Source: an uncultured Methanosarcinales archaeon (GTDB lineage: Archaea; Nanobdellota; Nanobdellia; Woesearchaeales; ARS49). Taken from it: a stretch of 64,000 nucleotides of DNA. Shown here one piece after another: positions 5,320 through 47,700 of the stretch. The first letter of the stretch is position 1, and each line of letters opens with the position of its first letter. The stretch spans positions 3,525-67,524 of the forward strand of contig CAZCCU010000002.1 in assembly GCA_964497645.1 (NCBI GenBank). Direction: 5' to 3'. The position numbers were made by a program, and so were the translations under genes. The notes below the pieces were generated by a model, which saw only the letters and a list, made by a program, of their open reading frames with translations, was not told where the DNA came from and did not search any database.

Positions 5320-5471
5320 ACATTTACCCCCGCATAGTTAAGTCGTGGATCTGTTTAAAAAGTTTCGTTGTCACTTCTGAGTGGAGTGGGGAATAAATGC
5401 TCTACCAGTATACAAAAAAGTAAACTTTTTATACACAAAGCCTATTTTACTATCCTAAGAGGGAAAAAAGA

Positions 5472-18486: not shown

Positions 18487-19980
18487 ATGCTTAATGACAA
18501 CAACACCCAGTCAAAATCACCTTCAACACTCGAATCACTATTAGATTTCTTCAGACTTAAAGCAGTTCCAGTTGTCGCAGCAGTCGCAGCAATTACAGGA
18601 TGCAGTGCAACAGGCACAAACGAGGCATCAGATGAAGCCAAGGGCCGTCTCGACACAAGAATTCTTCCAAAAGAATACAGCGTTAAAGACGCAAATCAAG
18701 TTAATGAAGCACTTGACAAACAAATCAAGATCGACACAGATTCTGCAAAAAGCTTAAGCCAATTCGAAGATGCACGCCTAAAAAACCTGAAAAAAATCGT
18801 AGACAAACTTCCAGGAACAAGCGCAGACGTCAAAGCATTCAACGAGTTAGAAAGACAAAACGAATTATTGTATAATTTGTTCAAGACAACCGGAATCAAG
18901 CACGTACTTATCCGCGATTTGAAGCGCAACGTCGACGTTGGCTCACTTCAATTACCAGAACTTTCAAATGACCAGATTTCACAGGCAATGAGCTACCTTG
19001 CGCCACTGAAAGTATCACTTGACGCAAAAGACCTCAGCTATGATGCACGACAAAAGCTCAGCAAGCGATTTGGCAAAAATGCAGACTATATAAAAATGTC
19101 TGAGTACAACCAAATCCTGTTGACGCTGCTCGACCAAATGTCAGCAACCCAGGCAAAAATAAACCATCATGAATTCCAACTGAACCAAATCGCATCAGCA
19201 GAAGACCTTACGGTAAAGATCAACAAGTCAATTTCTGGCAGAAAAGTAAACGATGTAACGGTTGCCAATGACATGTACGAGCATGGCGAACAAGCGCTCG
19301 CAGCAATAAGACCTTTGCCGGTAACCGGGCGTATCTCAAAGGAAAGCCCACTGGGAGAAGAATACTCAGACTTCGGAAGCAAAACAATAGGCGCGTTGTA
19401 CGATGCTATAATGACCGCTGCAGAAAAAGAAGCAGCAGACTACGGCAGAGGCAGCAAGCACACAATCGGACAATTCCACTATTTCCACCTGAAATCAATC
19501 GGAGACCAACTGCACAAAGCAGGAATCTTGAGAGACGAAGACTGGATAGCACTTGAAAAAGTCATGACAAGAGACTTTGCCAGAAAAGTCGTTCACGCAC
19601 TTCCAGAAGAAGAAAGCGTCAAACTCCTGCCAACACTCGGCAAAGCAGTACCGCTCGTCGGATGGTACTTTGGCGGCAAGAGCTTAGTAAGACTATTGCA
19701 AAACACAACTTACTCCTCAGGATCAATCATGGGCATAGTCAAGGACGGCACGTACCAGCAATATGGAGCTGGCACAGGATACAACAGAAAGGACAACAAC
19801 GCACAAGACCTTGCTGATGTAATCTCAACCGGAACTTCAATGGTGATTTCTGGCATAGGAGCCTACTTAATCTATGATCATAACAGATCAAGCAGCAGCG
19901 ATAGTGGCAGCGGCGGAAGCTCATCCGGCCCTGCAGGACTCTTCGGCACAGAAATAGGAGGCCCGGGTACAGGACCATGA
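18487..19980 (+). CDS. Putative lipoprotein translationally coupled to the giant surface-protein gene
   Basis: AVPVVAAVAAITGCSATG is a lipobox-like signal. The tail is Gly/Ser-rich. Its stop overlaps the giant-gene ATG as ATGA. A TATA-like box at 18441-18448 favours the ATG at 18487 over the ATG at 18454. Confidence 0.55.
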   Translation: MLNDNNTQSKSPSTLESLLDFFRLKAVPVVAAVAAITGCSATGTNEASDEAKGRLDTRILPKEYSVKDANQVNEALDKQIKIDTDSAKSLSQFEDARLKNLKKIVDKLPGTSADVKAFNELERQNELLYNLFKTTGIKHVLIRDLKRNVDVGSLQLPELSNDQISQAMSYLAPLKVSLDAKDLSYDARQKLSKRFGKNADYIKMSEYNQILLTLLDQMSATQAKINHHEFQLNQIASAEDLTVKINKSISGRKVNDVTVANDMYEHGEQALAAIRPLPVTGRISKESPLGEEYSDFGSKTIGALYDAIMTAAEKEAADYGRGSKHTIGQFHYFHLKSIGDQLHKAGILRDEDWIALEKVMTRDFARKVVHALPEEESVKLLPTLGKAVPLVGWYFGGKSLVRLLQNTTYSSGSIMGIVKDGTYQQYGAGTGYNRKDNNAQDLADVISTGTSMVISGIGAYLIYDHNRSSSSDSGSGGSSSGPAGLFGTEIGGPGTGP

Positions 19981-22900
19981 TGAAAAAACTCTTACTAGCA
20001 TTACTTGTACTTTTAGCAATTCCAATAGTCCACGCAGCAGCTGACGTCACGTACAATTTCAACCAGAACAACGTCAACGCATCAGTTTACAACTGCCTTG
20101 ACTCAGCATGCAACCAAGTCGGCACGTTCGGCGGAAGCATAAGAGACGGTCCAAACGTCACAGACGGAACACTCACAATCAGATATCCAGATACTCTAAA
20201 CACGCACGGATACGGCGCATTCTTCGTAAGCAAAGGATACAGACCATTAGAAATCAGAGCAACTTGGCATACAAACGGAAACACCGGAATCGCCAGCACA
20301 TCAGTCAACTACGAATTCACCAAATACCCGATCACCTGCCGTGCAGTCGTATCACAATTAACATTCGTAAACGAATTACAACCGAACGTACCATTAGTGG
20401 TTAACATGTCTGCAAAACTTGACGCCCAGACAGCAAGCGCATTCCAATTAACCAACAACGAAGTCGGCTATGTGCCTCCAGAATTCAAGCAGGAATACTA
20501 CGGTGCTGACACCATTGTCAAAATGGAAGTGCTCCAAAGCGGCTCAGTCGTACACAGCCAGCAGCAGGAATTCAGCGCAGTCAAAGGCAACTCACTGATC
20601 GCAGACAGCACAGTACCAGTGCAATTCACATACCTGCCAACATCAACAGGAAATTTCGCAGTAAAAGTCACAGCACAAGTCGTTGACGACCAGTGCGCGG
20701 CAACAGAAGACGTAAACGCGCAAGGAGCGTTCACAGTATTACAAGCACTGCCAACAAGCCAATTCTACACAATATTGAACGGTTTAACGATCAACAACAC
20801 GCACCCGCGAATCGGACAACCAGTACTAGTTTCATACAACAAGATAACAAACCACGCAGACGGCGTACTAGGACCATTAACACCAGTCCAGACAGACGTA
20901 GATTATATCGTAAAGAACGGCGCAACAACAATATTCAGCCATACTACAACCCTGTTCGAAAACCCAGACGCAGTCAACCCAGTAACATACTCATTCACGT
21001 TCAATCCAACATCAGCAGGCGTATATAATATAACAGTCAAAGGCAGAGCAAACTCGGCAATCCCGACCACGAACCCAGAAATAACAGACGAAGAAAGCCT
21101 GCTCCTTACAGTAATCGGCTCAATGTCATACAAAGTAGCATTTAACGTAAGAAACGCAGACAACGGAACGCCAATAGAAAACGCAAGCGTTTCACTCTCA
21201 GGAATTGGAACAAACGCGACAAACGCAAATGGAACAATAAGCTTCTCACCAGTTCCAGAAGGAATGTACACTTACACGATAACAGCCCAAGGATTCGGAA
21301 CAAAGAACGACAAAGTAAGCGTCACCACAGACAAAACAATATCAGTTTCACTGCACTCAGGCGCAAACGAAAGCGACGCGAACACAGCACCATTCATGAA
21401 CCTTCCAAACCAGATTGAAGTAGAAACAGACTCATACGCACGATTCAACTACCACGACTACGTCCAAGACGACCAGGACTCAGACAGCTCACTCGTATTG
21501 AGCGTTGTCAGCGGAGACGACGACATTACAGTCAACATCAACCAATTAACAGGCGTTGTAACATTGACTCCAGAACCAAGCTTCAGCGGAAGCAACACAA
21601 TCCGGTTCAGAGTGACTGACACTCAAAACGCATCAGAAACAGACAGCATCACAGTCACTGTTGACGCGACCGCAGTCGCGCCAGTCTGGGCAACAGTCTC
21701 AGACATTGAAACAGATGAAGACACGGCAGCAGTACGCGTATTGAACTTAAGAGAATTTGTTTCAGACGCAGACACGCCAGTCGCAAACCTTGTCTTCAGC
21801 GTTGTCGGAGTTGTGCCAAGCACGCTAGCAACAGCACAAATCGACAACGGCCAATATTTGACAGTATATCCAAAGCCAGACGCAAACGACTTTGGAACAA
21901 TCAACGTCACAGTATCAGACGGCACAACAAGCGTTGAAACAAGCATAGACTTGGACGTAACACCAGTCAACGATGCGCCAGTAGTCATTGCTGTTCCAAG
22001 AATACCAAACATCAACGAAAGCACAAACTACACGCTGAACTTATCACAAGTATTCAGAGACGTAGACGGAGACCCATTATACTTCAACGTCACAGAAACA
22101 ATGAATGTAGGCTTTGCAATCAGCAACTCAGCACAACAGATGACAATACTTCCGGAATTCAACGTCACCGGCACAAGAACATTCAACGTCACAGCAACAG
22201 ACCCAAGCGGTCTGAACGCAACAGCAACATTCACACTCTACCTGAACTTTGTAGACGACTCACCATTCTTCACACAAGTCATACCAGGCATATTAACATT
22301 TGAAGAAACACCAAACTCAAGAGACCTGTCTCCATACGAAGATGACCCAGAAGACGGACCAGGCGCAAACGGAAACACACTCACATGGAAGATGCAACTG
22401 GCAAACCAGAGCAACGTCACACCTGTAACTTTCATCAGCCATCCAATATTCAACGCATCAATAAACACAACTACAGACTTCTTCCTAGTATTGCCAAAAG
22501 CAAACCAGACAGGAATCGTAGAAATGACACTGTACTTGTTCGACAGCACAGGAAAGAACGTATCACAAAACATAACAATCAACATCACAAACGTCAACGA
22601 CGCGCCAGTATTCGTAAACTTGAGCAACCAAGTCGTAGAAGCTGGAACAGCATTTGTCTATGACGTAAACGCAACAGACTCAGACCCAACAAATGATACA
22701 CTTGCGTTCAGCTTGAACAACGTCACGCCATCACTTTCAGGATTCAGCATCGACAGCGCAACAGGCATGATCAACTACACTCCAATGGTTAACGGAGCAT
22801 TCAACGTATCATTGCAAGTATGCGACAACTTCAGCGCGTGCACCAACGGAACGTTCGCTTTAACTGTTACAGACATCACAGCACCAGTACCAGACGGCCA

Positions 22901-25900
22901 GATAACGCCTCTAAACCCAAGCGTATACGCACCAAACGCAAGCTACACCTGGGGAATCAACTGGTCAGACAACGGAAACATAACAAACGTAACATTCCAG
23001 CTAGGAAACACGAACTTCACAAACGTAACACAAACCGGAAGCTTCTACCAGACAACACTACTTGACCTTGCCGCAGGAAATTACACATTCGCATGGTTCG
23101 CAAGAGACGGCGCAAACAACGTCAACATGAGCAATTCAAGCAATTTCACAATCCTGAAAGCAAACAGCACAATGGACCTATTGCTTAACGGAACAGCAGG
23201 AAACATAACAGTACCACAAACAAGCAATGTTACAGTGATGGCAAACATCACAAACACCACAGGAACTGTTTCAATATTCAGAGACGGCAACCTTGTAGGA
23301 ACAGGCGCAGCGCCATTGTCAATCAATCAATCATTCCCAGACCAAGGAACGTTCAATATCACCTCAAGCTTTGCAGGAGATCAGAATTACACAGGAACTT
23401 CAGCCACGCACTTCGTAATAGTGCCAGACACGACTCCGCCAGTATTTGGCACACAAACAGTAAGCCCAGCATCACCAGCAATGTTCACATCATTATACAA
23501 CTTTAAAGTAAGCGTGACAGACAACGTTGGAGTAGCAAACGTCACACTTGAATTAGACAATGCAACAAACAGCACAGCTTCACAGATAGGCAACACCAGC
23601 ACATGGGAAGCAAACCTGACATTCATATCGGTTGGCAACCACAGCTTCAAATGGTTCGCAAACGACTCAGCAGGCAACCAGAATTCAACTGCCATAAGCA
23701 ACTACACAGTCACACCAGGAATCGCAGCACTCACATTGACGATAAACGGAGTAGCAGGCAACACGAACGCGCAAGTAAGCGATTCAGTCACATTTGTCGC
23801 AAACGTAACAAACCCAGCAGGCGGACCAGTACAATTGTACATCAATGGAACGCTTGCATCAAGCGGAGCCTCACCTTTAACACACGTCACAAGCTTCGCA
23901 AGCACCGGAACAATGCCGATATTGGCACTATTCCCAGGCGATGCAAACGTAGCAACTGGAAACATCACAAGAACCCTCACGATAACACCAATTGTAACAT
24001 CAGCAAACATAACGCCAGCAAGCGGAGCATCATTGAACTACAGCACATTCCTCATCGCGCTTGACACAAATGGCGCGACAACCTGCAAGTGGAGTTTCAC
24101 AGACGTAGCACAAGGAAGCATGACAAACAGCTTCACCACAGCAAACGGTCTGCAACACACAGCAAACGTCACAGGCTACTTGCTAGGACCATTCAGCGTC
24201 TCAGTAGCATGCAACGGGCAGAGCGCAATCACAAACACAGACTTGAGCTACACAGCACAGAACTTCCTAGACGGAAGCACACTAAACGGCCTGAACAACA
24301 TAAACAACAGCATATTCACACAAGGAATATCAAACGTCTCAACAGTACTGAACAGCAACATAACCACGAGCGAGTCAACAAACAGCGCACTTACGAACGT
24401 TACAGCAATAAACTCAGAATTCATTGATTCAACCCTGACAAACTGCGTCGTGACAAACAGCATAGTCAAAGACATCATAGCAACAGGATGCACGTTCACA
24501 GACAGCTTTGTAGACCCAAGCAACCTGACAGGAAGCACTATAATATCAAGCAACACTATTGACAGCAACGTAACATTCTCAAACGTAACAGACAGCACGA
24601 TAGTGAACGCAAACGTCAACAACAGCAACGTAATGGACAATTCGGTAATACATGTTGGAATCAACAATGTTGAAAGCAGCAACCTTTCAAACGTTCACAT
24701 GCACAATTCAAATGTCACAAATTCAGCACTTACAGACGTATTTATGGATTTGACAGTTGTTACAAACTCAGTCATCGACTCCGCAGATTTCATATACAAT
24801 TCAACAATAACCGACTCAACGCTAGTAGATGTCCTTACGATAAGAAACTCAATCATCACAAACTCTTATGTTGAAGATTCAAGCCTATTCGATGTCACAG
24901 TAATAGACGCGAACATCACCAGCGGAGTCATATACAGTGGTGTAATAATCTCTCACTTGATTAACCTGACATACAACGCAACTCAAGACGGACCATCAAA
25001 CCTGACCAATTTTGTAAACTATGCGCCTTTTGTTTTAATGACGATAAGCCCAACCAGCGGAATCAGAGTTGGAACAACTGTAACTTTCACAGCAAACGCG
25101 TCAGACGTAAACATTGGCACACTGCTTAACGATTCAATCGTAAGATACGAATTTTACTTGATTGACGATAACACTCCTACAATAACTGTCAATACCTCAA
25201 ACACATCTGTAAGCGTCACACACGCATACAATGCAACAGGAACATACTTCCCATTCGTATTAGTTTATGATTCATTCGGAGAAGTCGGAGGCTTTGGTGA
25301 TACGGTAAACGTCTCAGCAGCACCAAGTTCAGGAGGCGGCGGAGGCGGTGGCGGTGGAGGCGGTGGAGGAGGCGGTGGTGGAGGCGGCGGAAGCAACATA
25401 CCACGCATAGCACTCACAGACACACCTGTCACAAGAATAGTCTACCAAGGACAGCCATTGCAGTTCAGCATCGAAGGCAAATTACAGCCATTGAGCGTCA
25501 CACTGCGAAGAGTGGTTATCAGCGGAAACGGTTCAACAGAATGGATGTCAAACGGAGCCCAATCAACAGTAATGACAGGCGAGCACATGCTCTTCGACCT
25601 TACAAGAGATAATATTCCAGAACTAGACCTAGAAGTTTTGAGCGTCAGCAGAGGCAGCACAACAATAAGCATGAAACTAGCAAGCGCACCAAGCGTTACA
25701 ACAATGCCTCCATTGCCAGTATTCAACTTCACACCAGTACGAGAGCAGCAACCGCCAGTGGTTCCACCACCAGCAGTTGTTCCAGTAGTACCAGTAGTAG
25801 AAGAGGAAGAAGTTGAAGTCAAAGCAGAAGTCAAGCAAGGCTTCTGGCAGAAACTCAAGGACATGTTCACAATCAAGCTCTCAGCAAAATCAGCAGCTGT

Positions 25901-25979
25901 GCGAATAGGCATAGTTATTGCAGTTGTTGTAATCGGCTTGATAGCGTACGCATTCTTCGTGCGCTGGGAATCATTTTAG
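19977..25979 (+). CDS. Giant (2000 aa) type-I membrane-anchored surface protein or adhesin
   Basis: The signal peptide reads MMKKLLLALLVLLAIPIVHAAADV. Repeated Ig/cadherin-like modules end in VNDAPV. A pentapeptide-like periodic segment follows, then a run of about 20 Gly, a Pro/Val linker PPVVPPPAVVPVVPVVEEEE, and a C-terminal TM helix IGIVIAVVVIGLIAYAFFV. Sequons are extremely frequent. Confidence 0.8.
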   Translation: MMKKLLLALLVLLAIPIVHAAADVTYNFNQNNVNASVYNCLDSACNQVGTFGGSIRDGPNVTDGTLTIRYPDTLNTHGYGAFFVSKGYRPLEIRATWHTNGNTGIASTSVNYEFTKYPITCRAVVSQLTFVNELQPNVPLVVNMSAKLDAQTASAFQLTNNEVGYVPPEFKQEYYGADTIVKMEVLQSGSVVHSQQQEFSAVKGNSLIADSTVPVQFTYLPTSTGNFAVKVTAQVVDDQCAATEDVNAQGAFTVLQALPTSQFYTILNGLTINNTHPRIGQPVLVSYNKITNHADGVLGPLTPVQTDVDYIVKNGATTIFSHTTTLFENPDAVNPVTYSFTFNPTSAGVYNITVKGRANSAIPTTNPEITDEESLLLTVIGSMSYKVAFNVRNADNGTPIENASVSLSGIGTNATNANGTISFSPVPEGMYTYTITAQGFGTKNDKVSVTTDKTISVSLHSGANESDANTAPFMNLPNQIEVETDSYARFNYHDYVQDDQDSDSSLVLSVVSGDDDITVNINQLTGVVTLTPEPSFSGSNTIRFRVTDTQNASETDSITVTVDATAVAPVWATVSDIETDEDTAAVRVLNLREFVSDADTPVANLVFSVVGVVPSTLATAQIDNGQYLTVYPKPDANDFGTINVTVSDGTTSVETSIDLDVTPVNDAPVVIAVPRIPNINESTNYTLNLSQVFRDVDGDPLYFNVTETMNVGFAISNSAQQMTILPEFNVTGTRTFNVTATDPSGLNATATFTLYLNFVDDSPFFTQVIPGILTFEETPNSRDLSPYEDDPEDGPGANGNTLTWKMQLANQSNVTPVTFISHPIFNASINTTTDFFLVLPKANQTGIVEMTLYLFDSTGKNVSQNITINITNVNDAPVFVNLSNQVVEAGTAFVYDVNATDSDPTNDTLAFSLNNVTPSLSGFSIDSATGMINYTPMVNGAFNVSLQVCDNFSACTNGTFALTVTDITAPVPDGQITPLNPSVYAPNASYTWGINWSDNGNITNVTFQLGNTNFTNVTQTGSFYQTTLLDLAAGNYTFAWFARDGANNVNMSNSSNFTILKANSTMDLLLNGTAGNITVPQTSNVTVMANITNTTGTVSIFRDGNLVGTGAAPLSINQSFPDQGTFNITSSFAGDQNYTGTSATHFVIVPDTTPPVFGTQTVSPASPAMFTSLYNFKVSVTDNVGVANVTLELDNATNSTASQIGNTSTWEANLTFISVGNHSFKWFANDSAGNQNSTAISNYTVTPGIAALTLTINGVAGNTNAQVSDSVTFVANVTNPAGGPVQLYINGTLASSGASPLTHVTSFASTGTMPILALFPGDANVATGNITRTLTITPIVTSANITPASGASLNYSTFLIALDTNGATTCKWSFTDVAQGSMTNSFTTANGLQHTANVTGYLLGPFSVSVACNGQSAITNTDLSYTAQNFLDGSTLNGLNNINNSIFTQGISNVSTVLNSNITTSESTNSALTNVTAINSEFIDSTLTNCVVTNSIVKDIIATGCTFTDSFVDPSNLTGSTIISSNTIDSNVTFSNVTDSTIVNANVNNSNVMDNSVIHVGINNVESSNLSNVHMHNSNVTNSALTDVFMDLTVVTNSVIDSADFIYNSTITDSTLVDVLTIRNSIITNSYVEDSSLFDVTVIDANITSGVIYSGVIISHLINLTYNATQDGPSNLTNFVNYAPFVLMTISPTSGIRVGTTVTFTANASDVNIGTLLNDSIVRYEFYLIDDNTPTITVNTSNTSVSVTHAYNATGTYFPFVLVYDSFGEVGGFGDTVNVSAAPSSGGGGGGGGGGGGGGGGGGGGSNIPRIALTDTPVTRIVYQGQPLQFSIEGKLQPLSVTLRRVVISGNGSTEWMSNGAQSTVMTGEHMLFDLTRDNIPELDLEVLSVSRGSTTISMKLASAPSVTTMPPLPVFNFTPVREQQPPVVPPPAVVPVVPVVEEEEVEVKAEVKQGFWQKLKDMFTIKLSAKSAAVRIGIVIAVVVIGLIAYAFFVRWESF
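25332..25391 (+). repeat. (GGN)20 triplet tract encoding a run of about 20 glycines inside the giant surface-protein gene
   Basis: The sequence is ggaggcggcggaggcggtggcggtggaggcggtggaggaggcggtggtggaggcggcgga. Confidence 0.9.
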
Positions 25980-26318: not shown

Positions 26319-26828
26319 TTAGCTGACAGGAAAAAGCTCAACACCACTAGATTTTGCTATTGCTTTCAAATCTTTCCGTATTCGTTCATTTGCTTGGCGA
26401 GGGTCTCCTGGAACAACCCTTAAATCCGGGTTATCTGGCGCATAAAGTAATTTTGTTCTTGGTGTTACAACCATGCCAATAAAATCAGGATAGTGTCTCA
26501 ATTGGTCTTGATAACTTTTTATGTCTGCATCTGAAAAATGAGTTTCATAATAACTGCCGTGTTGACTGATAGTGCCTTGGCTGTGAGTGTGAAACTTCAC
26601 ATACTGGTAGTCTGGATTTTTCCTAAAGAATTCATTGGCTACTTTCATTTGTGAATCTTCCGCCACCACATGAGAAGTAGTTCCTATTCCTGTCGTAAGA
26701 ATAGCTTCGATCGGGCAATAATCCCCTTGACGTCTATACAGTAAGATGCCGTTTACTTCGTTAGTAAGTTGTGCCATTCTATCTAACGCACTGTTAAACC
26801 TTTTTGCTAGTAATACTTGTCTAGACAT
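26319..26828 (-). CDS. Possible MPN/JAB (JAMM or RadC-like) domain protein
   Basis: KFHTHSQG resembles the HNHPSG motif of RadC/JAB proteins. SDAD lies downstream and AED/EAIL Glu residues upstream. The HxH-to-SxxD spacing is longer than canonical, so the call is tentative. Confidence 0.45.
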   Translation of the reverse strand: MSRQVLLAKRFNSALDRMAQLTNEVNGILLYRRQGDYCPIEAILTTGIGTTSHVVAEDSQMKVANEFFRKNPDYQYVKFHTHSQGTISQHGSYYETHFSDADIKSYQDQLRHYPDFIGMVVTPRTKLLYAPDNPDLRVVPGDPRQANERIRKDLKAIAKSSGVELFPVS

Positions 26829-27001
26829 AAAGAATCAAACAATAATCCATTATTTAAATCTTTCCATTTTTACCACTCTTGAGTGTCTAAAGTTGCAGCA
26901 ATCTATCCAAGTCTTCCGCGGATTGTTCGCTTCTTTTTATTACTTCTTATCAGTGGTAAACTATGGGAAGCTTTTTATAAGTGAGTTCTTTACGTCTGTA
27001 T

Positions 27002-29715: not shown

Positions 29716-29789
29716 TATGTCTACTGTCAACTTCGTTGACTTAAAGTCAACCAAATGTGGGTAGGGAATTATCGACAACTTCGTTGTCG
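29716..29789. promoter_or_regulatory. Operator-like palindrome cluster in the divergent promoter region between the DUF3467/wHTH operon and grpE-dnaK-dnaJ
   Basis: GTCAACttcgTTGAC lies at 29716-29730, GTTGACTTaAAGTCAAC at 29725-29741, and CGACAACttcGTTGTCG at 29773-29789. Two copies of the core CAACTTCGTTG are about 57 bp apart. Confidence 0.4.
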
Positions 29790-29814
29790 GAACTTCCTCG
29801 GAGACCTCGGAAGC

Positions 29815-30312
29815 ATGGACGAAAAGGACAAGAAAGAACCAGTGGAGCACGAACAGTTCAAGCAAGAACTGGCAAAGAAAGAAGCGCTGATCGCAGACTA
29901 CACTGACCATTTGAAAAGACTGCAGGCAGAATTCGAAAACTACTGCAAACGCGTTGAAAAAGAACGCAAAGACTTTGCAGGCGTTGCATCAGAAAAACTC
30001 ATTGTCAAGCTATTGCTTGTAATCGATGACTTTGAACGCGCCCTGGCGACGCTCAAAAGCGTGCCGGAAGAAGCGCGAAAAGGAATCGAGATGATTTTCA
30101 AGAATTTACACAAGATTTTGCATGAAGAAAGAGTCGAGCAGATAAAAGCAGTAGGACAAAAATTAGACCCGTACAAGCACGAAGTCCTGCTGCAAACACA
30201 AAGCGACCAGCCAGACGACATCATACTCGAAGAATTACAAAAAGGATACACGATGAATGGAAAAGTCATCAGGTATGCTAAAGTAAAAATCAGCAAACAC
30301 GGAGGAAAATAA
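29815..30312 (+). CDS. grpE: Nucleotide exchange factor GrpE
   Basis: [29 protein letters not shown] and [12 protein letters not shown] match GrpE. The ATG at 29815 is preferred over the upstream ATG at 29755 used by the track. Confidence 0.85.
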
Positions 30313-30313
30313 A

Positions 30314-32137
30314 ATGGGTAAAGAAAAAATCATAGGCATAGATCTCGGCACATCGAACAGTGCAGCATCAGTTTTAGAAGCAGGCAGGCCAAAAATAATC
30401 CCGTCAGCAGAAGGAGTATCGCTATACGGAAAAGCATTCCCGTCATTCGTCGCGTTTACGAAGGATGGACAGCTTCTTGTTGGCGAGCCGGCAAGACGAC
30501 AAGCAGTCTCAAACCCGCACGGAACAATCTACGCTGCAAAAAGAAAGATGGGCACTAATTTCAAATACCAAATCCACGGCAAAGAATACACTCCTCAGCA
30601 AATTTCTGCGTTTATCCTGCAGAAGATCAAGCGAGATGCTGAATCATTCTTAGGAGAGCCAATAACGAAAGCAGTGATTACAGTTCCTGCCTACTTTGAT
30701 GATAATCAGAGACAAGCAACCAAAGACGCAGGAACAATCGCAGGATTGGAAGTTGTACGCATTGTAAATGAGCCAACATCAGCAGCACTCGCATACGGTC
30801 TTGACAAAGCAGGCCAGGAACAAAAGATTCTCGTGTTTGACCTTGGCGGCGGAACATTAGACGTCACAATCATGGACTTCTCAGAAGGAGTCTTTGAAGT
30901 CGTAAGCACATCAGGAGACACGCAGCTAGGTGGCACAGATATGGATAATGTGTTGATTAGCTACATTGTCAAGGACTTCCAGAAAGAATCTGGAGTTGAT
31001 TTGAGCACAGACGCAGTAGCAATGCAGAGAATCAGAGAATCAGCAGAAAAAGCAAAAATAGAATTGAGCACAGTACTTGAGACTGAAATCAACCTGCCAT
31101 TCGTCACGGCAACACAGCAAGGACCAAAACACTTGCAGATGAAGCTCACACGAGCCAAATTAGACGAGTTGATTGATCCGATAGTTAAAAAATGCAAGAA
31201 ATCAGTCGACCAAGCAATAAGCGACTCAAAATTAGCAGTCAAGGACCTACACAGAGTCGTCCTTGTAGGCGGACCAACAAGAATGCCACTAGTCCAGAAG
31301 TATCTGGAACAATGGTTCGGCAACAAGGTTGAAAGAAGCATCGACCCGATGGAATGCGTCGCAATGGGAGCAGCAATCCAAGCAGGAGTGCTCGCAGGAG
31401 AAGTAAAAGACATACTGTTGCTGGACGTCACACCATTAAGCTTAGGAATTGAGACACTCGGAGGCGTGTTCACCAAATTAATTGAAAGAAACACAACAAT
31501 TCCAGTAAAAAGAAGCCAAAACTTCAGCACTGCGGCAGACGACCAGTCAGCTGTCACAATAAGAATCTCGCAAGGAGAACGACCAATGTTTACTGATAAT
31601 AAACTGCTCGGACAATTCGACCTTGTAGGAATCCCGTCAGCTCCCCGCGGAATCCCGCAGATTGAAGTTACGTTCGATATTGACGCGAACGGAATACTCA
31701 ATGTTTCTGCAAAAGACCTTGGCACCGAAAAAGAACAGAGCATGAGAATAACAGCTCCAAACAAGCTGGACACGGCAGAAGTCGAAAAAATGCGCAAACA
31801 AGCAGAAGAGTTCGCAGAAGTTGACAAGAAAAAGAAAGACGAAATAGAAACAATCAACCAAGCAGACACGCTGGTCTACACTGCAGAAAAACAGATGAAA
31901 GACTTTGAAGGCAAAATAAGCGAAAAAGAAATAAAGGACGTCAAAGACAAGATAAACGAGCTCAAGAAATTATTGGCAGAGAGTCCACGAGACCCTGCAA
32001 AGATAAAGAAAAACCTTGACGAGTGCAACCACGTCCTGCACGCGGCAGCCACTGCTTTGTACCAAAAAGCAGGCGCAAAAGCGCAAAAGCCAGGCAAGGG
32101 CAAAGAAGAAGATGTCGTAGACGCGGAAAAAGCATAA
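30314..32137 (+). CDS. dnaK: Chaperone DnaK (Hsp70)
   Basis: [29 protein letters not shown] and the substrate-binding domain give full-length Hsp70 homology. Confidence 0.97.
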
Positions 32138-32155
32138 GTTCAAGAGACTGAACCA

Positions 32156-32314
32156 ATGGAATACAAACTATATGCGTACATCGCATTTGCACTCTTAGCA
32201 GTCTATTTCTTAGTGCGAATGGCAGAGCAATGGGCGATAAAAAAGCTCATAAGAGCAGAATTCGAACACGTTATTCATAGTGAGGAACACAAGGTCAAAG
32301 GACGATATCAATGA
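32156..32314 (+). CDS. Small one-helix membrane peptide; not in the ORF track
   Basis: It translates as MEYKLYAYIAFALLAVYFLVRMAEQWAIKKLIRAEFEHVIHSEEHKVKGRYQ (52 aa). Its stop overlaps the dnaJ ATG as ATGA. Confidence 0.3.
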   Translation: MEYKLYAYIAFALLAVYFLVRMAEQWAIKKLIRAEFEHVIHSEEHKVKGRYQ

Positions 32315-33375
32315 CCAAGGATTATTACAAGATTCTCGGAATAGAAAAAGGAGTGTCAACAGAAGACATCAAAAAGGCCTACAAGAAACTAGCCAAAAAA
32401 TACCATCCAGACATCAACAAAGAAGCCGGTGCATCTGACAAGTTCAAAGAAATAAACGAAGCAGCAGCGGTATTAGGTGACCCTGACAAAAGAGCGCAAT
32501 ACGACCAGTTCGGCACAGCAGACTCCGGACAACAATTCTCAGGATTCGACTTTAGAGACTTCGCTGGCAGTGTTAATTTTGATGACATATTCGACCAATT
32601 CTTCTCAGGATTCGGCTTCAAAAAAGGCAGAAGCGGAAGACCAGGCAGAGATTTAGTAGCAGAAGTCGATATTACACTAGAAGACGTAGCTAAGGGCGCT
32701 ACGCGAGAAATCGACGTGCAAAGAATGGTGCAGTGCGCAGAATGCCGAGGCAAAGGCGGAAGCAATTTCACACAATGCAACACCTGCCAAGGACAAGGCG
32801 TGGTAAGACACGCAAAAAGAACACCATTCGGAATGTTCGCAACGACAACATCCTGCAATAACTGCCGCGGCAGCGGAGAAGTCGCTGAAAACATCTGCAA
32901 AGAATGCGACGGAGAAGGAAGATTGGTAAGCAGAGAGCCAGTAAAAGTCAAAATACCAGCAGGAATACATGATGGAATGCGATTGCGCGTCAGCGGAGAA
33001 GGAGAAGCAGGAGAGCACGGAGCGCCAGCAGGAGACCTTTATGTTCTAGTACACGTCCCTGAAGACAAAAGATTCACCCGAGATGGAGAAGATTTGATCA
33101 TCGAACAGCCAATCAGCTTTTCAACAGCATGCATGGGTGGTGAGCTGACAGTTGAAACACTTGAAGGCAAGAAAAAAATCGATGTAAAGCCAGGAACGCA
33201 GAATAATTCTGAGATAAGGCTTGACGGAGAAGGACTTCCAGAGCTAAGAAGCGGAAGACAAGGAGACTTTGTAATAAAAATATCAGTTGAAGTCCCAAAG
33301 AAAATAAGCAAAAAACAGGCAGAGTTACTGAAAGAATTCGAGAAAGAAGGCAAAAAGAAATGGGGATTGTTCTGA
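32311..33375 (+). CDS. dnaJ: Chaperone DnaJ (type I)
   Basis: The J domain carries HPD in YHPDINKE. A G/F region follows, then four CxxCxGxG zinc-finger repeats and the C-terminal domains. Confidence 0.95.
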   Translation: MTKDYYKILGIEKGVSTEDIKKAYKKLAKKYHPDINKEAGASDKFKEINEAAAVLGDPDKRAQYDQFGTADSGQQFSGFDFRDFAGSVNFDDIFDQFFSGFGFKKGRSGRPGRDLVAEVDITLEDVAKGATREIDVQRMVQCAECRGKGGSNFTQCNTCQGQGVVRHAKRTPFGMFATTTSCNNCRGSGEVAENICKECDGEGRLVSREPVKVKIPAGIHDGMRLRVSGEGEAGEHGAPAGDLYVLVHVPEDKRFTRDGEDLIIEQPISFSTACMGGELTVETLEGKKKIDVKPGTQNNSEIRLDGEGLPELRSGRQGDFVIKISVEVPKKISKKQAELLKEFEKEGKKKWGLF

Positions 33376-34266
33376 TTATTTCTTAATATTTTTAACGTAA
33401 AAAGTTGACTCGTCCCCGTCAAATTTCAGCGCACGAGCGCTGTCATCATATATTTTCTTGAAATCATCAATAAGTCTTGCTCTCTTTGCCGGCTCTTTTC
33501 TGAACAAAGGATGTTTTTGTGCAGGATAAAGCCACACTTGATTAATATTGCCTATGCGGGCAACTTCGCAAGCAACTTTGAGGCCGAGAACACTGGTAGG
33601 GTCCGCCTTTGGATAATCAGTGCGGGTATCTTGTATTTGGTCAACAACAATAACATCGTCAGCTGCCATTTTCCTATACCAAAAGCCAACCGTGCTCAAA
33701 TGCTGGTATGGTTCCTCTGAGCCAGCTGGATGATGCAGAATTTCAATGTTGAATGGAGCATCAGAAACAACCGCTTCACCAGGCCTGTTACCAATGCCGA
33801 AATTCGTCCTGACTTTATAACGAGAACTGAAATCTTCGCCCAACCTGACGCGGTCGGTAAGTTCAGCACGCGTGTTGAATTGCCGAAGATAATCGATAAC
33901 GCCATTGCTGACAGTTGGTTCTGTGCCAATTAGATATGCCTCGAGAAGAAAATCAGGAACTGCCATTTTTCTTGCCAAAAGAGGGACAAGCGCTGCAGGC
34001 ATCACTCTAGGCGACGGTCTTAATTGATCGCCTGCAGTGTCAAAATAATTGTCAGCACCATCTAAATTACTTAAATCATCCTTGAGTAACTCAAAAGCAT
34101 CAGATAAGTCTTTGTCCGAAAGGGGCTCTTGTGTATTTAGAATGGTTCCAAGATTGCACCGCAACTCAGAAAACCTACCTTCGCAAGTGACCTCTCTCTT
34201 ACGTCTAGAGTCCCCCATAACCACCGGCGAGTGATTAATATATAAAAATCTACCGTTTTTAAGCAT
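33376..34266 (-). CDS. Unknown-function protein, paralog B of a tandem pair
   Basis: It shares CEGRF(S/N)EL, R(T)(N/K)FGIG, VV(S/P)DAP(F/Y)(N/S)IE, VGFWY, QIQ, KHP(L/M)F and Y(D/Y)DS(A)(R/K)ALxF with the upstream gene. Confidence 0.6.
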   Translation of the reverse strand: MLKNGRFLYINHSPVVMGDSRRKREVTCEGRFSELRCNLGTILNTQEPLSDKDLSDAFELLKDDLSNLDGADNYFDTAGDQLRPSPRVMPAALVPLLARKMAVPDFLLEAYLIGTEPTVSNGVIDYLRQFNTRAELTDRVRLGEDFSSRYKVRTNFGIGNRPGEAVVSDAPFNIEILHHPAGSEEPYQHLSTVGFWYRKMAADDVIVVDQIQDTRTDYPKADPTSVLGLKVACEVARIGNINQVWLYPAQKHPLFRKEPAKRARLIDDFKKIYDDSARALKFDGDESTFYVKNIKK

Positions 34267-34268
34267 AC

Positions 34269-35213
34269 TTATAACACCTTCTTATAATAAGTACTTCTGG
34301 TTCCTGTAAAACCTAGAGCTTTAGCACTAGAGTCGTAGTACCCAGTAAATTCACCTTTCATTCTTGGCTTTCTATCCGGAAATTGCATAAACATAGGGTG
34401 CTTGTCTGCGGAATAGGTCTCTATTGCTCCGAAGCCCAGTTGTCTGGCTACCAGCTCGGCAATCTCCATGCCAACGATTCCCATTTGGGAGTCATTGCCA
34501 GGAAGCTGAGCCTTCTGGGGCTGCTGAATCTGGCTAATAACCATGACATCTTTCTTTTCCATAGGATCGTGTTTATACCAGAAACCAACAAGCAAAGACG
34601 GCTTTTTATCAGGGTTGAAAAGCTCAATACTGTACGGAGCGTCTGGAACAACAGCATCAGCTTCAGTGCGGCCAATGCCAAACTTGGTTCTTAATGAAAA
34701 TCCTCTTAAAGGAGCTCTATCAGGAGCTAAGCGAATAGGCTGTTCATAGCCCTTTTTAGCCTTCTCGTGATCCTTAACGGTCTCTTTTCGGATAGCTATC
34801 CGCCTTGAATCCAGGTCAAGATCAAGCTCTTCTTCAAGGTCCAGACCTTTGTGCCATTTTCCAAGGAGGCCGGCCATCCTGCTTCCGCAATTCTGGCGTT
34901 CTAAATAGCCTCGTGGTAAGCTTTCTTCCATCACGAATGCTCTGGAAATAAGCGGGACGAGATCTATGTGGGCATCAGCATCTGCATGTAATGAGTTAGG
35001 CCTAATAATATCCATATTTGACTGGAAATATGGGTCCAGTGGGTCAATAGTTTCCAGCCGATTAGCAATTAGGAAATAGGCATCCCTTAGCTCTTTAGGA
35101 GTCACACTCCTACTAAGACCTGGGGGCAATAGCAGTTCAAGAGCTTCAGTCAATTCGCCAGTAAGCTCGTTGAACCTTCCTTCACATTTTATAGTTCTTA
35201 CCTCGTTTTCCAT
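34269..35213 (-). CDS. Unknown-function protein, paralog A of a tandem pair
   Basis: It shows the same motif set as 33376-34266 at about 35-40% identity over the full length (estimated by eye). The two genes are 2 bp apart on the same strand. Confidence 0.6.
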   Translation of the reverse strand: MENEVRTIKCEGRFNELTGELTEALELLLPPGLSRSVTPKELRDAYFLIANRLETIDPLDPYFQSNMDIIRPNSLHADADAHIDLVPLISRAFVMEESLPRGYLERQNCGSRMAGLLGKWHKGLDLEEELDLDLDSRRIAIRKETVKDHEKAKKGYEQPIRLAPDRAPLRGFSLRTKFGIGRTEADAVVPDAPYSIELFNPDKKPSLLVGFWYKHDPMEKKDVMVISQIQQPQKAQLPGNDSQMGIVGMEIAELVARQLGFGAIETYSADKHPMFMQFPDRKPRMKGEFTGYYDSSAKALGFTGTRSTYYKKVL

Positions 35214-35351
35214 AGTACTACTATGTAGTGGTTAAAGTATATAAATCTTACTGTTTTTACCACTTTTAAGTGACTAAATAAGAGAGGTTTAAATAGCGAA
35301 GACAATATCACTTACTTCTTTAAAGCAGGTGAAAACAGAATTTGTAATGCT

Positions 35352-35888
35352 CTAGGCACACAGTTCTCTCAATCTCTTCAAAGCGCGAGCCTTGAAAGTG
35401 CGGACTTTTGACGCCGGTACTTTCAGCATAGCCCCAATTTCAACAAAAGTATGCGGTTTTTGGTCGTACAAACCATAATGGGAAGTAATCACGTACCGCT
35501 CATGCAGAGGCAAAGACTTCACTTCCCTGCAAAGCCTGTTAATAGCCGACCGGTCCTCTCTATTAATGATGTCATCCAGCGGAGTCCGCCCATGCGCAGC
35601 ATCATGATCAAGAGAGTCAAACGGCTCAAAGTGCCTCGACCGGCGCTTTTCAGTCTTAGTGATGTCCATAATCTTACGGCCCATGCACGTACAGACATAC
35701 GTTGAAAAAGATCCTTTTTTAGGATCATACTTCTGGGCAACTTCCCACATCCTGAACGCTGCTTCCTGCGCAGCATCATCACGCAGATAAAGAGGGCTAC
35801 GATTTTTTGCCATCGCATACGCCAAGCGCATATGAGAAGCAACCAAAGAGTCAACCGGCTTATTACTTCCCTGATAGTCCCCACTCAT
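35352..35888 (-). CDS. Sigma-70-family protein (regions 2 and 4; ECF-sized, 178 aa)
   Basis: Region 2 reads DDAAQEAAFRMWEVAQKYDPKKGSFSTYVCTCMGRKIMDITKTEKRR, against the consensus D-L-V-Q-E ... F-S-T-W-L ... Rxxxd. Region 4.2 reads LPLHERYVITSHYGLYDQKPHTFVEIGAMLKVPASKVRTFKARALKRLRE, against RFGL..TLEEIG....VTRERIRQIE.KALRKLR. Confidence 0.65.
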   Translation of the reverse strand: MSGDYQGSNKPVDSLVASHMRLAYAMAKNRSPLYLRDDAAQEAAFRMWEVAQKYDPKKGSFSTYVCTCMGRKIMDITKTEKRRSRHFEPFDSLDHDAAHGRTPLDDIINREDRSAINRLCREVKSLPLHERYVITSHYGLYDQKPHTFVEIGAMLKVPASKVRTFKARALKRLRELCA

Positions 35889-35975: not shown

Positions 35976-36632
35976 ATGGGGGAATTAGCTATAGCAGTTC
36001 TAATGCGCGAACTAATATGCAGATTGAGCCCTTCATATGGTGATGTCGCGCGGAGATTTAAAGACGAACAAGACAAAAAACCCCACAAGCCATACGACGA
36101 GGCAAACATCCTTGGAAAAGTATCCAAACACTACCTCAGATGCATCATCGAAAGCGCACCACGACTGTTCAAAAGCGTCCATGAAATCGAAGGAAGAGAT
36201 TCCTACTATTCAACAGACAACGGCTGCCAAATGCTTGTCGAAACAGCAGCCCTTGACCCAAACAGGAAAGACGTGTGCACTATTGACACTCTGACAGAAT
36301 TCAACGGCCGCACAGCCTTAATCGACATAAGAGCCAGCGATTGGGCAAACATACGAGAGAACTATTTCACAAAAAGAAAAGGATACGTGCCAATACTTGA
36401 TGCCATCTTTGGACAAGATGCATATGACAGAATCCTATTATTATGCAGCGACGTCCCGCCAACACGCGATGAAATCGGAAGGCGGATAGACAAAAGATTC
36501 CACAGAGGAGTCCACATCGTAAAACTGCAACTTGAGCTTGCACAGCTGGAAAGAATGGCATCCAACATCGGACGCCAATACAAACTGCTCAGACCAGTCA
36601 GCCCTATCACGCCAAAGACTACAAGTCCATAA
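35976..36632 (+). CDS. Hypothetical cytoplasmic protein
   Basis: It is a 218-aa ORF divergent from the sigma-like gene. No motif was recognised. Confidence 0.5.
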   Translation: MGELAIAVLMRELICRLSPSYGDVARRFKDEQDKKPHKPYDEANILGKVSKHYLRCIIESAPRLFKSVHEIEGRDSYYSTDNGCQMLVETAALDPNRKDVCTIDTLTEFNGRTALIDIRASDWANIRENYFTKRKGYVPILDAIFGQDAYDRILLLCSDVPPTRDEIGRRIDKRFHRGVHIVKLQLELAQLERMASNIGRQYKLLRPVSPITPKTTSP

Positions 36633-44769: not shown

Positions 44770-47700
44770 TTGGAGGTCGGTTTGACAAAAGCACGCATTC
44801 CATTGTTACCAATAAAAGGGGGACTTGGGGTTCTTACGCTATTTTTGATACTTCTAATAGCATGCACACAAGCAGACATAATAGCAAAGCCAACAAAACT
44901 CGCAGAACAGATACCTCCAGTACAGGAATTGAGCCAAGAGTCTGAACTGGAGAAAGCAACAGCAGTATCTCCTGTAACTGCGGCAATATCACTAGACGAG
45001 CCAAAACCCAAAATAGATCCAAAACTCGTCGAAGAGCTAAAAGAGCTCAAAAGGCAGAAAAAACACCAACGAGTCAGAGTACTTCTAGAAGCAACAGATG
45101 AAGAATCACTGGAAAGAGTAAGAGAAGCAGTCAAACGAGCAGGAGGAACAGTATATGAAAGCTTCAGCATAGGCGACATTGCAGTAGCAGAACTGCATTC
45201 AGACAAAATAGAGGAAGTCGTCCAAGCAGCAGGCGTGGAACAAATATCAGCAGAAAAAGAATATGTTGCTTTACTGCAAGACAGAATACCAGCGTTTTCT
45301 ATAGATACAGCATGGTCGAATAATATAACCGGAAAAAACGTCAAAATAGCGATACTCGACACAGGAATAGGACCTCACGACGACATTATCGTAGCAGCGG
45401 GACAATCATTCGTATCCGGAGAAGACACAGCAGACCAAAGCGGGCACGGAACACACGTAGCAGGAATAGCGCAAGGCATAGCCAAAGACGCGGTAATTTA
45501 CAATGCAAAAGTATTGAACAAGAACGGCGCTGGAACAACATCACAAATTCTCGCGGGAATAAACTGGGCAGTAGAACAGGACGTTGACATCATTTCTATG
45601 AGCTTTGGAGGAATGTTCACTGAATTAGACGGGCCACTTTCTTCTGCAGTCAAAGAAGCAATACAGAACGGAGTAATATTTGTTGTAGCGTCAGGAAACT
45701 GCAAACAAGGCTGCGGAGGATTTTATGGAGTTACAACACCAGGCAATGTAAAGGAAGTAATAACGGTTGGAGCGGTGGACGATAATAACGTTGTAGCTAG
45801 CTTCTCTTCAGGAGATACCTTTGATGGATACATCAAGCCGGATTTAGTAGCACCAGGAATAGACATCACCTCTGCCTGGCTGAACAACGGAGAAAAAACA
45901 GTCAGCGGAACCTCAATGAGCACGCCGTTCGTAGCAGGAGTAACCGCATTATTACTCGAGAAAGAGCCAGGATTGACGCACGAACAGGTAAAGCAGAGAC
46001 TGGAAAGCACGGCGACGGATCTGGGGGACGCGGGGAAGGATGAGAGGTACGGGGTAGGGCTAATAAGTGTGCCAAAATTAATTCAACCAGACCTAATTGT
46101 CAATCAGACCATTCAAAATTACACTGAAGTCTCCAGGACCAGAAACCTAAGCGAAATGCTCCCTTACGTGCTTACCAATTATACTGTATTGTATGAAGAA
46201 GGTAATCGCGGCAGCTATCAGTACACTACAATAGAGGGAGATAATGTTACTGTAAGCTTTTCTATCAGCAAACCAGAAAATTCAACAGAACTTGCCACAC
46301 AAATGCAATTGCCTTCTCAAGTTGAACCAAGCGACTCTGTGCCAGCCATTTTGGAATTCCTGGCAGGAGACAGGCCACCGCAAAGCACACCGCCTACATA
46401 TTTGACATTTGAAATAAGAGATACAGCTGGCGCTTTAGAAGGAATCCCACCGAGCTATACCATAACGCAATTCTTCAGAGACTTGCTTTATTCTGCAGAT
46501 CCAAGTGATATTGTCACGATTGGAATAATATTCACCGCGCCGAGCAGCTATGAAACATTCACAGCATATGCGTATATGTGGAACTTTCTTGTGGCTGATC
46601 CTGTCATGATTGATATCGATTCAGGAGGAAAAAGCTTTGACGTGGTATCAAATGCTAATCCATTTGATGAATGCGACAGAGATAGCGAATGTCCAGACGA
46701 CAGGTGGCGCGGCGGAACATACTGCCAAGATGGAGACATATATCAAGATTACAGAGACTGGTATTGCCTTGGAGCGTCAACAAGATATTCAAGCTGTGAA
46801 GTTGATACCTATCCCCGAAAGAAAGAGGAATGCGGAAGCAACGAATGCTGGAATGATCAATGTATTCCTCCATGCCAAGATGCAGACAAAGATGGCATCG
46901 GCTTGGCTTTCCCCTGCCCGATATTCGGTGACTGCGACGACAATGATGCAACTGTTTATGGCGGAGCTCCAGAACTGTGCGATGGCAAAGATAATGATTG
47001 TGATGCGTCAATTGACGAGGGCCTAGCAGACCTACCAGAGCTCTGCGACAATAACTTAGACGACAATTGTGACGGCCACATCAATGAAAACTGTCCATGC
47101 GGGAAAAACAGTGACTGCTTTCCTGGAATGGCGTGCGAGTTTGAATGGTACTCGGGAACCTGCCAGCCACTATCATGCACAAACAGATGCACGCCAGGAA
47201 CTTACACGTGTTCTTCAGGCTCGATATATGAATGCAAGGACAGCAACGGAGACGGCTGTACAGAACAGGTTTACAGAACATTCTGCGGATCAGGCAGATG
47301 CCAAAACGGACAATCAAATTGCCTGACAACATCATCTGTTGTTGTAAGAATAGAGGAATCAGAGGGCTCCATATACGTTCAACCAGGAGATGCAATCACT
47401 GTAAGCTTATATCCATCAGGAACTCAGACAGTCCAGCTCGAATATTCCTCAATATTCAGTCTGAACACGAGCACTTGTTCAAATAGCGCGTTCTCAATCA
47501 GCTCAAAAAAAGAGTGCAGATTCCAAGTAAGCCCGACAGCAGCGCGCGGAAGATATCATATTGGGGTAAACAGTGGAGACCGCAAATATATACTCGTGCG
47601 CACCAATCCAAACATGCTTATTCTGACAAACAAGGACAAACTGCGCGAGCTATACAAGGACACCAGCGGTGTAAACTCACTTCTTAGACAGACATATGCT

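Follow-up and report, generated by a model that had tools for sequence, protein, structure and literature searches.

Two adjacent genes in a 64,000-nucleotide stretch of contig CAZCCU010000002.1 (the window, to which coordinates refer unless another locus is named) raise a simple question: what does a pair of related proteins that matches no named family do, and does it belong with the sigma-like gene beside it? An initial annotation had described the genes, here called A and B, as tandem paralogues that could be assigned to nothing, had placed them in a probable operon with the sigma-like gene, and had taken the duplication as a sign of an accessory or diversifying function. We find that A and B are old paralogues of a very rare unnamed family, present mainly in Woesearchaeota-type DPANN archaea. 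Our tentative reading is that they are divergent acyl-transfer enzymes of the GNAT fold, regulated together and possibly acting as a heteromer. What is new is a very rare family inside a very common fold superfamily, marked by a novel N-terminal domain, by two paralogues in a fixed arrangement and by an operator that is conserved.

Two paralogues from a very rare family

Gene A (34269..35213, minus strand) encodes a protein of 314 amino acids, and gene B (33376..34266, minus strand) has a longest open reading frame (ORF) of 296 amino acids. The two products are similar over their full length (BLASTP, 30% identity, 46% positives, E 2e-35), which bears out the tandem paralogy proposed for this region and settles the pairwise comparison that had been suggested as a check. 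Most of the shared motifs are also as first described, namely CEGRFxEL, RT(K/N)FGIG, VV(P/S)DAP(Y/F)xIE, VGFWY(K/R), QIQ and KHP(M/L)F. Two details needed correction: the last motif, given as YDDSA, reads YDSSAKALGF in the 314-amino acid protein, and the residue preceding (D/Q)KHP, given as Ala or Tyr, is Ala in both proteins. An alignment of 15 homologues shows most of these motifs without variation, and among 60 family members they are still largely conserved. Neither protein has the hydrophobic stretch typical of a membrane span, and the N-terminal domains have an isoelectric point of about 5; the products are soluble two-domain proteins.

Relatives are scarce. A word-indexed search of 5.8 billion proteins produced three B-type and 12 A-type clusters, and an exhaustive hidden Markov model (HMM) search of 1.84 billion cluster representatives produced 64 proteins at E up to 1e-3 (counted as clusters at 50% identity), 36 of them at E up to 1e-30. 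In contrast, more than 1300 relatives are found at E below 1e-50 for the family-B DNA polymerase (PolB) that the window also encodes. A genome scan gave only three species representatives and a metagenome scan only two loci. This rare and patchy distribution fits the accessory role that had been proposed. IMG/VR viral contigs contained no relatives of clades A/B or E, and scans of A and B against PHROGs and PADLOC gave no match; thus, the search for viral relatives that had been recommended found none.

Sequence comparisons with curated families were equally negative. A and B had no match to Pfam or NCBIfam at E up to 1, and a Pfam scan of 44 family members returned no acetyltransferase model, only scattered single noise matches. 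Searching PDB sequences with A and B (phmmer) and with the family profile gave nothing relevant, the hits being noise to ribosomal protein S24 and the GluRS anticodon-binding domain at E 0.17-0.36. One alignment, A2, was too diverse for a pattern search. We found no description of the A/B family in the literature. The GNAT marker of a 2026 Nanobdellota preprint was ruled out as a member, that marker being a universal single-copy gene.

The host of the window is a DPANN archaeon of the Woesearchaeota. Named relatives of its PolB (54-80% identical) are almost all labelled Candidatus Woesearchaeota, and related loci carry the archaeal markers CDP-archaeol synthase, Rpr2, RIO1, deoxyhypusine synthase, eIF-1A, Cdc6 and the small subunit of PolD.

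The C-terminal halves are predicted to have a GNAT fold

Structural models were built with AlphaFold2 (AF2) using family alignments, with a predicted local distance difference test score (pLDDT) of 89.2 and a predicted template modelling score (pTM) of 0.89 for A, and a pLDDT of 92.1 and a pTM of 0.88 for B. In both models the first 150-170 residues or so form a helical region, and the domain that comes next has its elements in the order β1, β2, β3, β4, α3, β5, short helix, long α4, β6. This order fits the GNAT core, with the usual α1-α2 helices between β1 and β2 missing. In A, the family-specific helical domain spans residues 1-170 (nt 34704-35213) and the GNAT-fold domain residues 171-314 (nt 34272-34703); the alignment places an A-clade-specific insertion (KKGxEQPIxL, at about residues 131-172) in the helical domain. 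In B, the corresponding domains span residues 17-149 (nt 33820-34218) and 150-296 (nt 33379-33819).

When the models were compared with the PDB by Foldseek, the 50 best matches of each were all GNAT-type and covered 110-145 C-terminal residues. They include NatD/Naa40, the GNAT-like domain of ICL2/Rv1916, Naa50, the acetyltransferase domain of Elp3, KKT23 and GNAT toxins; the top matches for B were NatD, KKT23 and ICL2, with a best E of 2.8e-3. The N-terminal helical domains of the AF2 models had no Foldseek match. Matches in BFVD were mostly to small proteins and, among the compact named ones, most are acetyltransferases; the top BFVD match, G9I9G9 (E 2e-4), was discarded, having a root-mean-square deviation (rmsd) of 22 Å over 362 columns. 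The fold comparison that had been suggested for these proteins thus leaves the N-terminal domain without a match and links the C-terminal domain, weakly, to GNAT-type proteins. The statement that the family can be assigned to nothing therefore holds at the level of sequence (Pfam, NCBIfam, PADLOC, PHROGs and PDB) but not at the level of fold, since the modelled C-terminal half is very probably a GNAT acyltransferase fold.

The best or near-best match to the C-terminal domains of both proteins is NatD/Naa40, the histone H4/H2A N-alpha-acetyltransferase (4u9w, 7kpu, 7kd7), over about 127-142 aligned columns with Foldseek probabilities of 0.97-1.0 and a common GNAT core of β2-β4, α3, β5 and α4. 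The likeness is nevertheless distant, at 11-15% identity, E about 2e-3 to 4e-3 and rmsd 6-7 Å, with no sequence-profile link. NatD lacks the 150-170-residue helical domain of A and B, whereas A and B lack α1-α2, and the conserved residues of A and B (QxQ, HPxF, YDxS) differ from those of NatD. NatD too carries an N-terminal segment, one that wraps around the core and binds a basic peptide. The top match for A (E 1.7e-3, 144 columns) was the C-terminal domain of Mycobacterium tuberculosis ICL2/Rv1916 (6edz, 6ee1, 8g8k), which the PDB entry titles describe as a divergent GNAT-like, acetyl-CoA-binding domain. It is part of an isocitrate lyase of 730-750 amino acids, is only 9-13% identical to A and B, and leaves their N-terminal domain unmatched. 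The ICL2 domain is an allosteric acetyl-CoA sensor, not a transferase.

GNAT-fold units can also occur as duplicated pairs. In MshD, Eis, FemX and N-myristoyltransferase, two such units that arose by duplication are joined in a single chain, in which frequently just one of them is catalytic. A and B differ in being separate genes that both keep all conserved residues, and none of these proteins is among the top 50 fold matches.

Conserved residues suggest an active site in both proteins

The polar residues common to A and B are C10, R13, D57, D60, Y62, D68, R71, D191, Q228, Q230, H272 and D294 (A numbering is used throughout). The conserved positions, kept in both paralogues and for the most part in clades C, D and F, are spread over both domains. 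Those of the N-terminal domain comprise an N-terminal motif (C10, G12, R13, F14), a structured loop (D57, D60, Y62, D68, R71) and positions in the helices (P87, Y103), and include the motifs CxGRF and DxxDPYF...D..R. Those of the GNAT-fold domain lie at the end of β1 (F178-G-x-G181), in the β1-β2 loop (D191-x-P193), in β3 (G210-F-W212), at the end of β4 (Q228-x-Q230), at the start of α3 (G245 and G/A248), in β5 (Y267), just after β5 (H272-P273-x-F275) and in α4 (Y293-D294-x-S296 and A-x-A-L-G-F). In the GNAT architecture, the end of β4, the β4-α3 loop and the residues after β5 form the acyl-CoA and catalytic cleft. The positions of the conserved residues in the models would thus fit an active site. 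Because neither paralogue has lost this residue set, both are probably active and neither appears to be a decayed copy. A family missed by sequence methods thereby gains a fold assignment, a domain plan and a shortlist of candidate catalytic residues.

The pair is an ancient module

Scanning all fetched loci with HMMs showed an A-type gene followed directly by a B-type gene, in the same order, in nine distinct lineages (the window and loci L006, L007, L008, L010, L011, L012, L013 and L020, with L009, L014 and L021 the same as L008). Neighbour-joining analysis of 60 members places A and B in two distinct clades, each a single group to which every locus contributes one gene, and A orthologues are 44-73% identical compared with 30% for A versus B. 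The flanking genes vary by lineage, being DnaJ/DnaK, SRP54 with a VTT-domain protein, Rpr2, a SUF operon or an ABC transporter. Because A and B fall in separate clades and keep a fixed order among differing neighbours, the sequence comparisons argue that the pair is an ancient, self-contained two-gene module whose duplication is older than the divergence of all carriers, and not a recent or diversifying duplicate. The paralogues are not each other's closest relatives in the tree, and A precedes B in all nine lineages. The diversifying function first proposed therefore does not hold: the duplication predates the divergence of the carriers and both copies retain the same conserved residues. Between the window and L006, identity is 61% for A, 53% for B, 86% for DnaK, 88% for the HTH_45 protein and 73% for DnaJ.

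Solo members of the family also exist. P0017 (locus L015) is a basal A-type gene, P0030 belongs to clade C and adjoins Archease-RtcB, P0025 belongs to clade D, and P0046 to clade E. The clade D gene (L018 4656-5642) has purine-biosynthesis genes around it and a NUDIX gene two genes away. The clade E gene (L022 6001-7158) directly follows a NUDIX gene, has integrase, VapBC, N6/N4 methylase and SLT lytic transglycosylase genes nearby, and was found on at least 25 contigs; in this clade H272 is replaced by Asn and D191 by Ser.

Each gene has a putative promoter and operator of its own

A sits 138 bp downstream of the sigma gene, and this gap holds what appears to be its own promoter. An exact copy of the organism's consensus transcription factor B recognition element and TATA box (BRE/TATA), AAGATTTATATA, lies at 35238..35249 (minus strand), about 25 nt before the A ATG. 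Allowing up to one mismatch, AAGATTTATATA has nine matches in the window against 0.38 expected, and each copy that was checked, among them the one preceding GrpE, has an ORF shortly downstream. These copies are at 144, 15436, 26851, 29673, 29699, 35238, 38276, 38385 and 44658, and the checked ones precede an ORF start by 25-90 nt. This spacing suggests that many mRNAs are leaderless or have a very short leader, and the A mRNA is probably leaderless. The same BRE/TATA box is found upstream of A in L006, L007, L008, L010, L011 and L012.

Eleven nt upstream of the A BRE/TATA is an exact copy of a CACT-N4-AGTG palindrome, CACTTAAAAGTG (35261..35272), a candidate transcription-factor binding site. 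Exact copies of this palindrome number three in the 64 kb, where 0.89 would be expected. In the 150 bp upstream of A, it is exact in L007, L008, L012 and L013 and degenerate in L006, L010 and L011. Five exact palindromes in about 1.35 kb of A-upstream sequence, where the background rate leads us to expect about 0.02, far exceed chance. A degenerate second palindrome, CACTACATAGTA (35219..35230, minus strand), lies between the A TATA box and the ATG, a position that would be typical of a repressor site, and L006, L011 and L012 also have a palindrome copy at the equivalent position.

The start of B is most likely not that of its longest ORF. A TATA-like box, AGATTTTTATATA (34239..34251, minus strand), lies inside the annotated first 16 codons of B and is its probable promoter; the L006 counterpart at the equal position is GTATTTAAAGGAT. 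It is followed by a conserved 22-nt block, TAATCACTCGCCGGTGGTTATG (34216..34237, minus strand), which holds the palindrome CACTCGCCGGTG (34222-34233) and ends in the ATG of M17. The L006 sequence differs from this block at only one of the 22 positions (G/A at position 16), though the B proteins are just 53% identical. Residues 4-15 of B have a pLDDT below 50 in the AF2 model. Because of the box and palindrome in codons 1-16, the conserved block and the low pLDDT, B most likely starts at M17 (ATG 34218-34216), giving a protein of 280 amino acids with its own promoter and the same kind of operator. The 2-bp spacing and 296-residue length given in the initial annotation are correct for the longest ORFs, but are probably an artefact of that choice, the spacer being about 50 bp when B is read from M17.

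With leaderless BRE/TATA promoters and CACT-N4-AGTG-type palindromes at each gene, expression of the pair would probably be set by an archaeal transcription factor, not by sigma read-through. The palindrome conserved at the A-B promoters is a cis-regulatory element that can be put to the test, a rarity in DPANN archaea. The two other exact copies in the window (5372-5383 and 26874-26885) each lie just upstream of a minus-strand promoter. The first precedes ORF 4858-5319 (153 amino acids, with a signal-peptidase-like SDSMAP motif), and the second precedes ORF 26319-26828 (169 amino acids, with HTHS...HFSDAD, possibly JAB/MPN-like, no Pfam match). These ORFs may form a small regulon with A and B. 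The family thus brings a testable candidate regulon and helps to annotate DPANN genomic dark matter.

A possible acyl-transfer mechanism and the case for other chemistry

The reading that we favour, a co-regulated pair of divergent GNAT-fold acyl-transfer enzymes, would work as follows. In each subunit the β4/α3/β5 cleft would take up an acyl donor, probably acyl-CoA; at this cleft a G-x-x-(G/A) turn opens helix α3, and the invariant Q228 and Q230 (end of β4) and H272-P273 (just after β5) occupy GNAT active-site positions. The N-terminal domain would take the place of the missing α1-α2 helices, which normally build the acceptor site. The acceptor, a cationic molecule, would sit in an acidic pocket of that domain formed by D57, D60, D68, D191 and D294 and receive the acyl group on an amine. 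A and B probably cooperate, because they are always adjacent, in the same order and under the same operator; they might form a heteromer in which both sites are active. A stably linked, co-regulated pair of this kind is a candidate lineage-specific modification enzyme in the Woesearchaeota, a group with few known enzymes and no cultures. GNAT is among the commonest enzyme folds, and the result contradicts nothing in current understanding; it is useful rather than surprising.

Several observations weigh against this reading and keep it tentative. No curated GNAT sequence model (Pfam Acetyltransf_* clan, NCBIfam) recognises the family, and hhalign found no similarity between the family profile and Escherichia coli RimI (probability 0.1%), a comparison with a single RimI sequence (100% identical to PDB 5isv_A). 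The fold matches are weak: the best E is 1.7e-3, none in the PDB reaches 1e-3, the template modelling score is about 0.35-0.4 on the target and the rmsd is 6-8 Å. The canonical Q/R-x-x-G-x-G/A motif is present solely as a variant. At the start of α3, A has Q243-M-G245-I-V-G248, with G-x-x-G/A instead of G-x-G/A spacing, and B lacks the Gln; of 15 close homologues, 14 keep G245, as do clades A, C, D, E and F, and position 248 is Gly or Ala. In the 'Y-x-K-x-G-F' motif, the A/B family has Ala in place of the usual catalytic Tyr. Finally, because the solo members described above exist, a heteromer is not required for the family as a whole.

Such departures also bear on the alternative that the GNAT fold serves a chemistry other than acyl-CoA-dependent N-acylation, namely aminoacyl-tRNA-dependent transfer (as in FemX, L/F-transferase and MprF) or the decarboxylation of acyl thioesters through a His and Ser/Thr pair (seen in malonyl-CoA decarboxylase and the GNAT of the CurA loading module). 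We consider this unlikely, yet it is the alternative that survives best. The invariant His after β5, the Q-x-Q on β4, the five conserved Asp and the N-terminal Cys and Arg are atypical of acetyltransferases, the canonical motifs are altered, and the family lies beyond the sequence reach of all Pfam GNAT models. Malonyl-CoA decarboxylase and the CurA loading-module GNAT also combine a helical N-terminal domain with a GNAT domain that has a catalytic His after β5 and a polar residue on β4, a plan resembling that of A and B. However, A and B match no Pfam model, and all five of these proteins are absent from the top 50 Foldseek matches, the best of which are N-alpha-acetyltransferases and the ICL2 GNAT-like domain. 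Nor do tRNA, acyl carrier protein or polyketide synthase genes recur near A-B loci.

The pair appears independent of the neighbouring sigma gene

The gene upstream of A (35352..35888, minus strand), outside the A-B module, encodes a sigma-70-family protein of 178 amino acids with regions 2 and 4 (Pfam Sigma70_r2 E 1.2e-10 and r4 E 2.9e-8; TIGR02937 E 3.2e-18). It scores better against the phage sigma family phrog_351 (E 4.5e-24) than against TIGR02937. Sigma genes occur near A-B in three of the nine lineages and are directly adjacent to A in the window only. In L006, a gene on the opposite strand separates sigma from A, and in L012 a sigma gene encoding 488 amino acids lies about 4 kb upstream of A-B; the remaining six lineages have no sigma gene within 9-21 kb of DNA per locus. 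The adjacency expected of a sigma/anti-sigma or sigma-dependent operon is not conserved. Because A has its own BRE/TATA in the 138-bp gap and the sigma linkage is not conserved, the operon with the sigma-like gene is not supported, and on sequence grounds A-B appears independent of it.

These results bear on a further possibility, that A and B lack catalytic activity and serve as GNAT-like sensors of a ligand or as regulators, in the manner of the C-terminal domain of ICL2, and might modulate the neighbouring sigma factor as an analogue of an anti-sigma factor. The ICL2 domain is a top or near-top structural match and a sigma gene lies close by in the three loci above. Sigma-70 genes have been reported in Woesearchaeota, with no anti-sigma factors found in DPANN (Castelle et al. 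2021, PMC8204110). The absence of a sigma gene from these 9-21 kb in six of the nine lineages speaks against this proposal. The window and L006 sigma proteins are only 23% identical, compared with 61% for A and 53% for B, so that sigma and the pair do not track each other. Moreover, a dozen invariant polar residues across distant clades resemble an active site more than a binding surface. We regard a sensor role as improbable. We give similarly little weight to a bolder proposal, that A and B are two subunits of an undescribed heteromeric enzyme with a non-canonical chemistry, or the missing regulator of the bacterial-type sigma factors of Woesearchaeota. The enzyme of this proposal might combine the new helical domain with a stripped-down GNAT core and use its His, Gln-x-Gln, Cys-x-Gly-Arg and multi-Asp residues on an aminoacyl, nucleotide or polyamine substrate; if so, that substrate would be important for the symbiotic lifestyle of DPANN archaea.

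Very little favours the idea that the pair arose by recent tandem duplication, is transcribed together with the sigma-like gene and has an accessory or diversifying role. Sigma, A and B are close together on the same strand, and the family is rare, patchy and faster-evolving than its chaperone neighbours (A and B against DnaK, window versus L006). Against this, the duplication is ancient with a fixed order, each gene has a putative promoter of its own, the sigma linkage is not conserved, and the locus has invariant motifs and no repeats, variable cassettes or hypervariable segments.

Least credible of all is a GNAT toxin-antitoxin pair or other mobile defence module: weak fold matches to AtaT, TacT, KacT and GmvT and the integrase-, VapBC- and methylase-rich surroundings of the distant solo clade E relative (P0046) point towards it, whereas both paralogues are of about 300 amino acids, not a toxin of roughly 170 with a small ribbon-helix-helix (RHH)/DUF1778 antitoxin, the PADLOC, PHROG and IMG/VR searches were negative, the GC content of the A-B region is the same as that of the remainder of the window, and the neighbours at Woesearchaeota loci are housekeeping genes (DnaJ/K, SRP54, Rpr2, SUF system). 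A TacAT/AtaRT/KacAT-type system was rejected, the matches to AtaT, TacT and KacT (E 0.03-0.1) being weaker than those to Nat enzymes.

Genomic setting and other observations

The window sigma gene adjoins a gene for a 218-amino acid protein (35976-36632, plus strand), and the same two genes are found in another arrangement in L006 (3990-4655 and 4764-5372). Between the window and L006, sigma (23%) and its 218/202-amino acid neighbour (25%) are far more diverged than flanking genes such as a 216-amino acid membrane protein (69%), the HTH_45 protein and DnaK; the 218/202-amino acid protein could be a sigma partner. The 488-amino acid sigma-70-family protein of L012 (4217-5683) has regions 2 and 4 at its C-terminus and a long unassigned N-terminal extension, and its gene adjoins eIF-1A on an archaeal contig.

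Downstream of B, a GrpE-DnaK-DnaJ cluster at 29755-33375 is convergent with the A-B pair; a DnaK-DnaJ-GrpE system has already been reported in Woesearchaeota together with bacterial-type sigma-70 genes (Castelle et al. 2021, PMC8204110). The stop codons of DnaJ (plus strand, ending at 33375) and B (minus strand, ending at 33376) converge with zero spacer, leaving no space for separate terminators.

Some public labels of metagenome-assembled genomes carrying the family look wrong. The contig of L008/L014 (DASPMU010000073.1), labelled 'Alphaproteobacteria bacterium', has genes for CDP-archaeol synthase, Rpr2, RIO1, deoxyhypusine synthase and a Lon protease of archaeal type, and the contigs of L013 and L015, labelled 'uncultured Methanosarcinales archaeon', carry the A/B family, which is otherwise on Woesearchaeota-type contigs. 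The 64-kb window has no tRNA or Rfam match anywhere. It does contain three very large ORFs, at 19977-25979, 44770-49809 and 50588-54772 (2000, 1679 and 1394 amino acids), which may encode large surface proteins typical of DPANN genomes.

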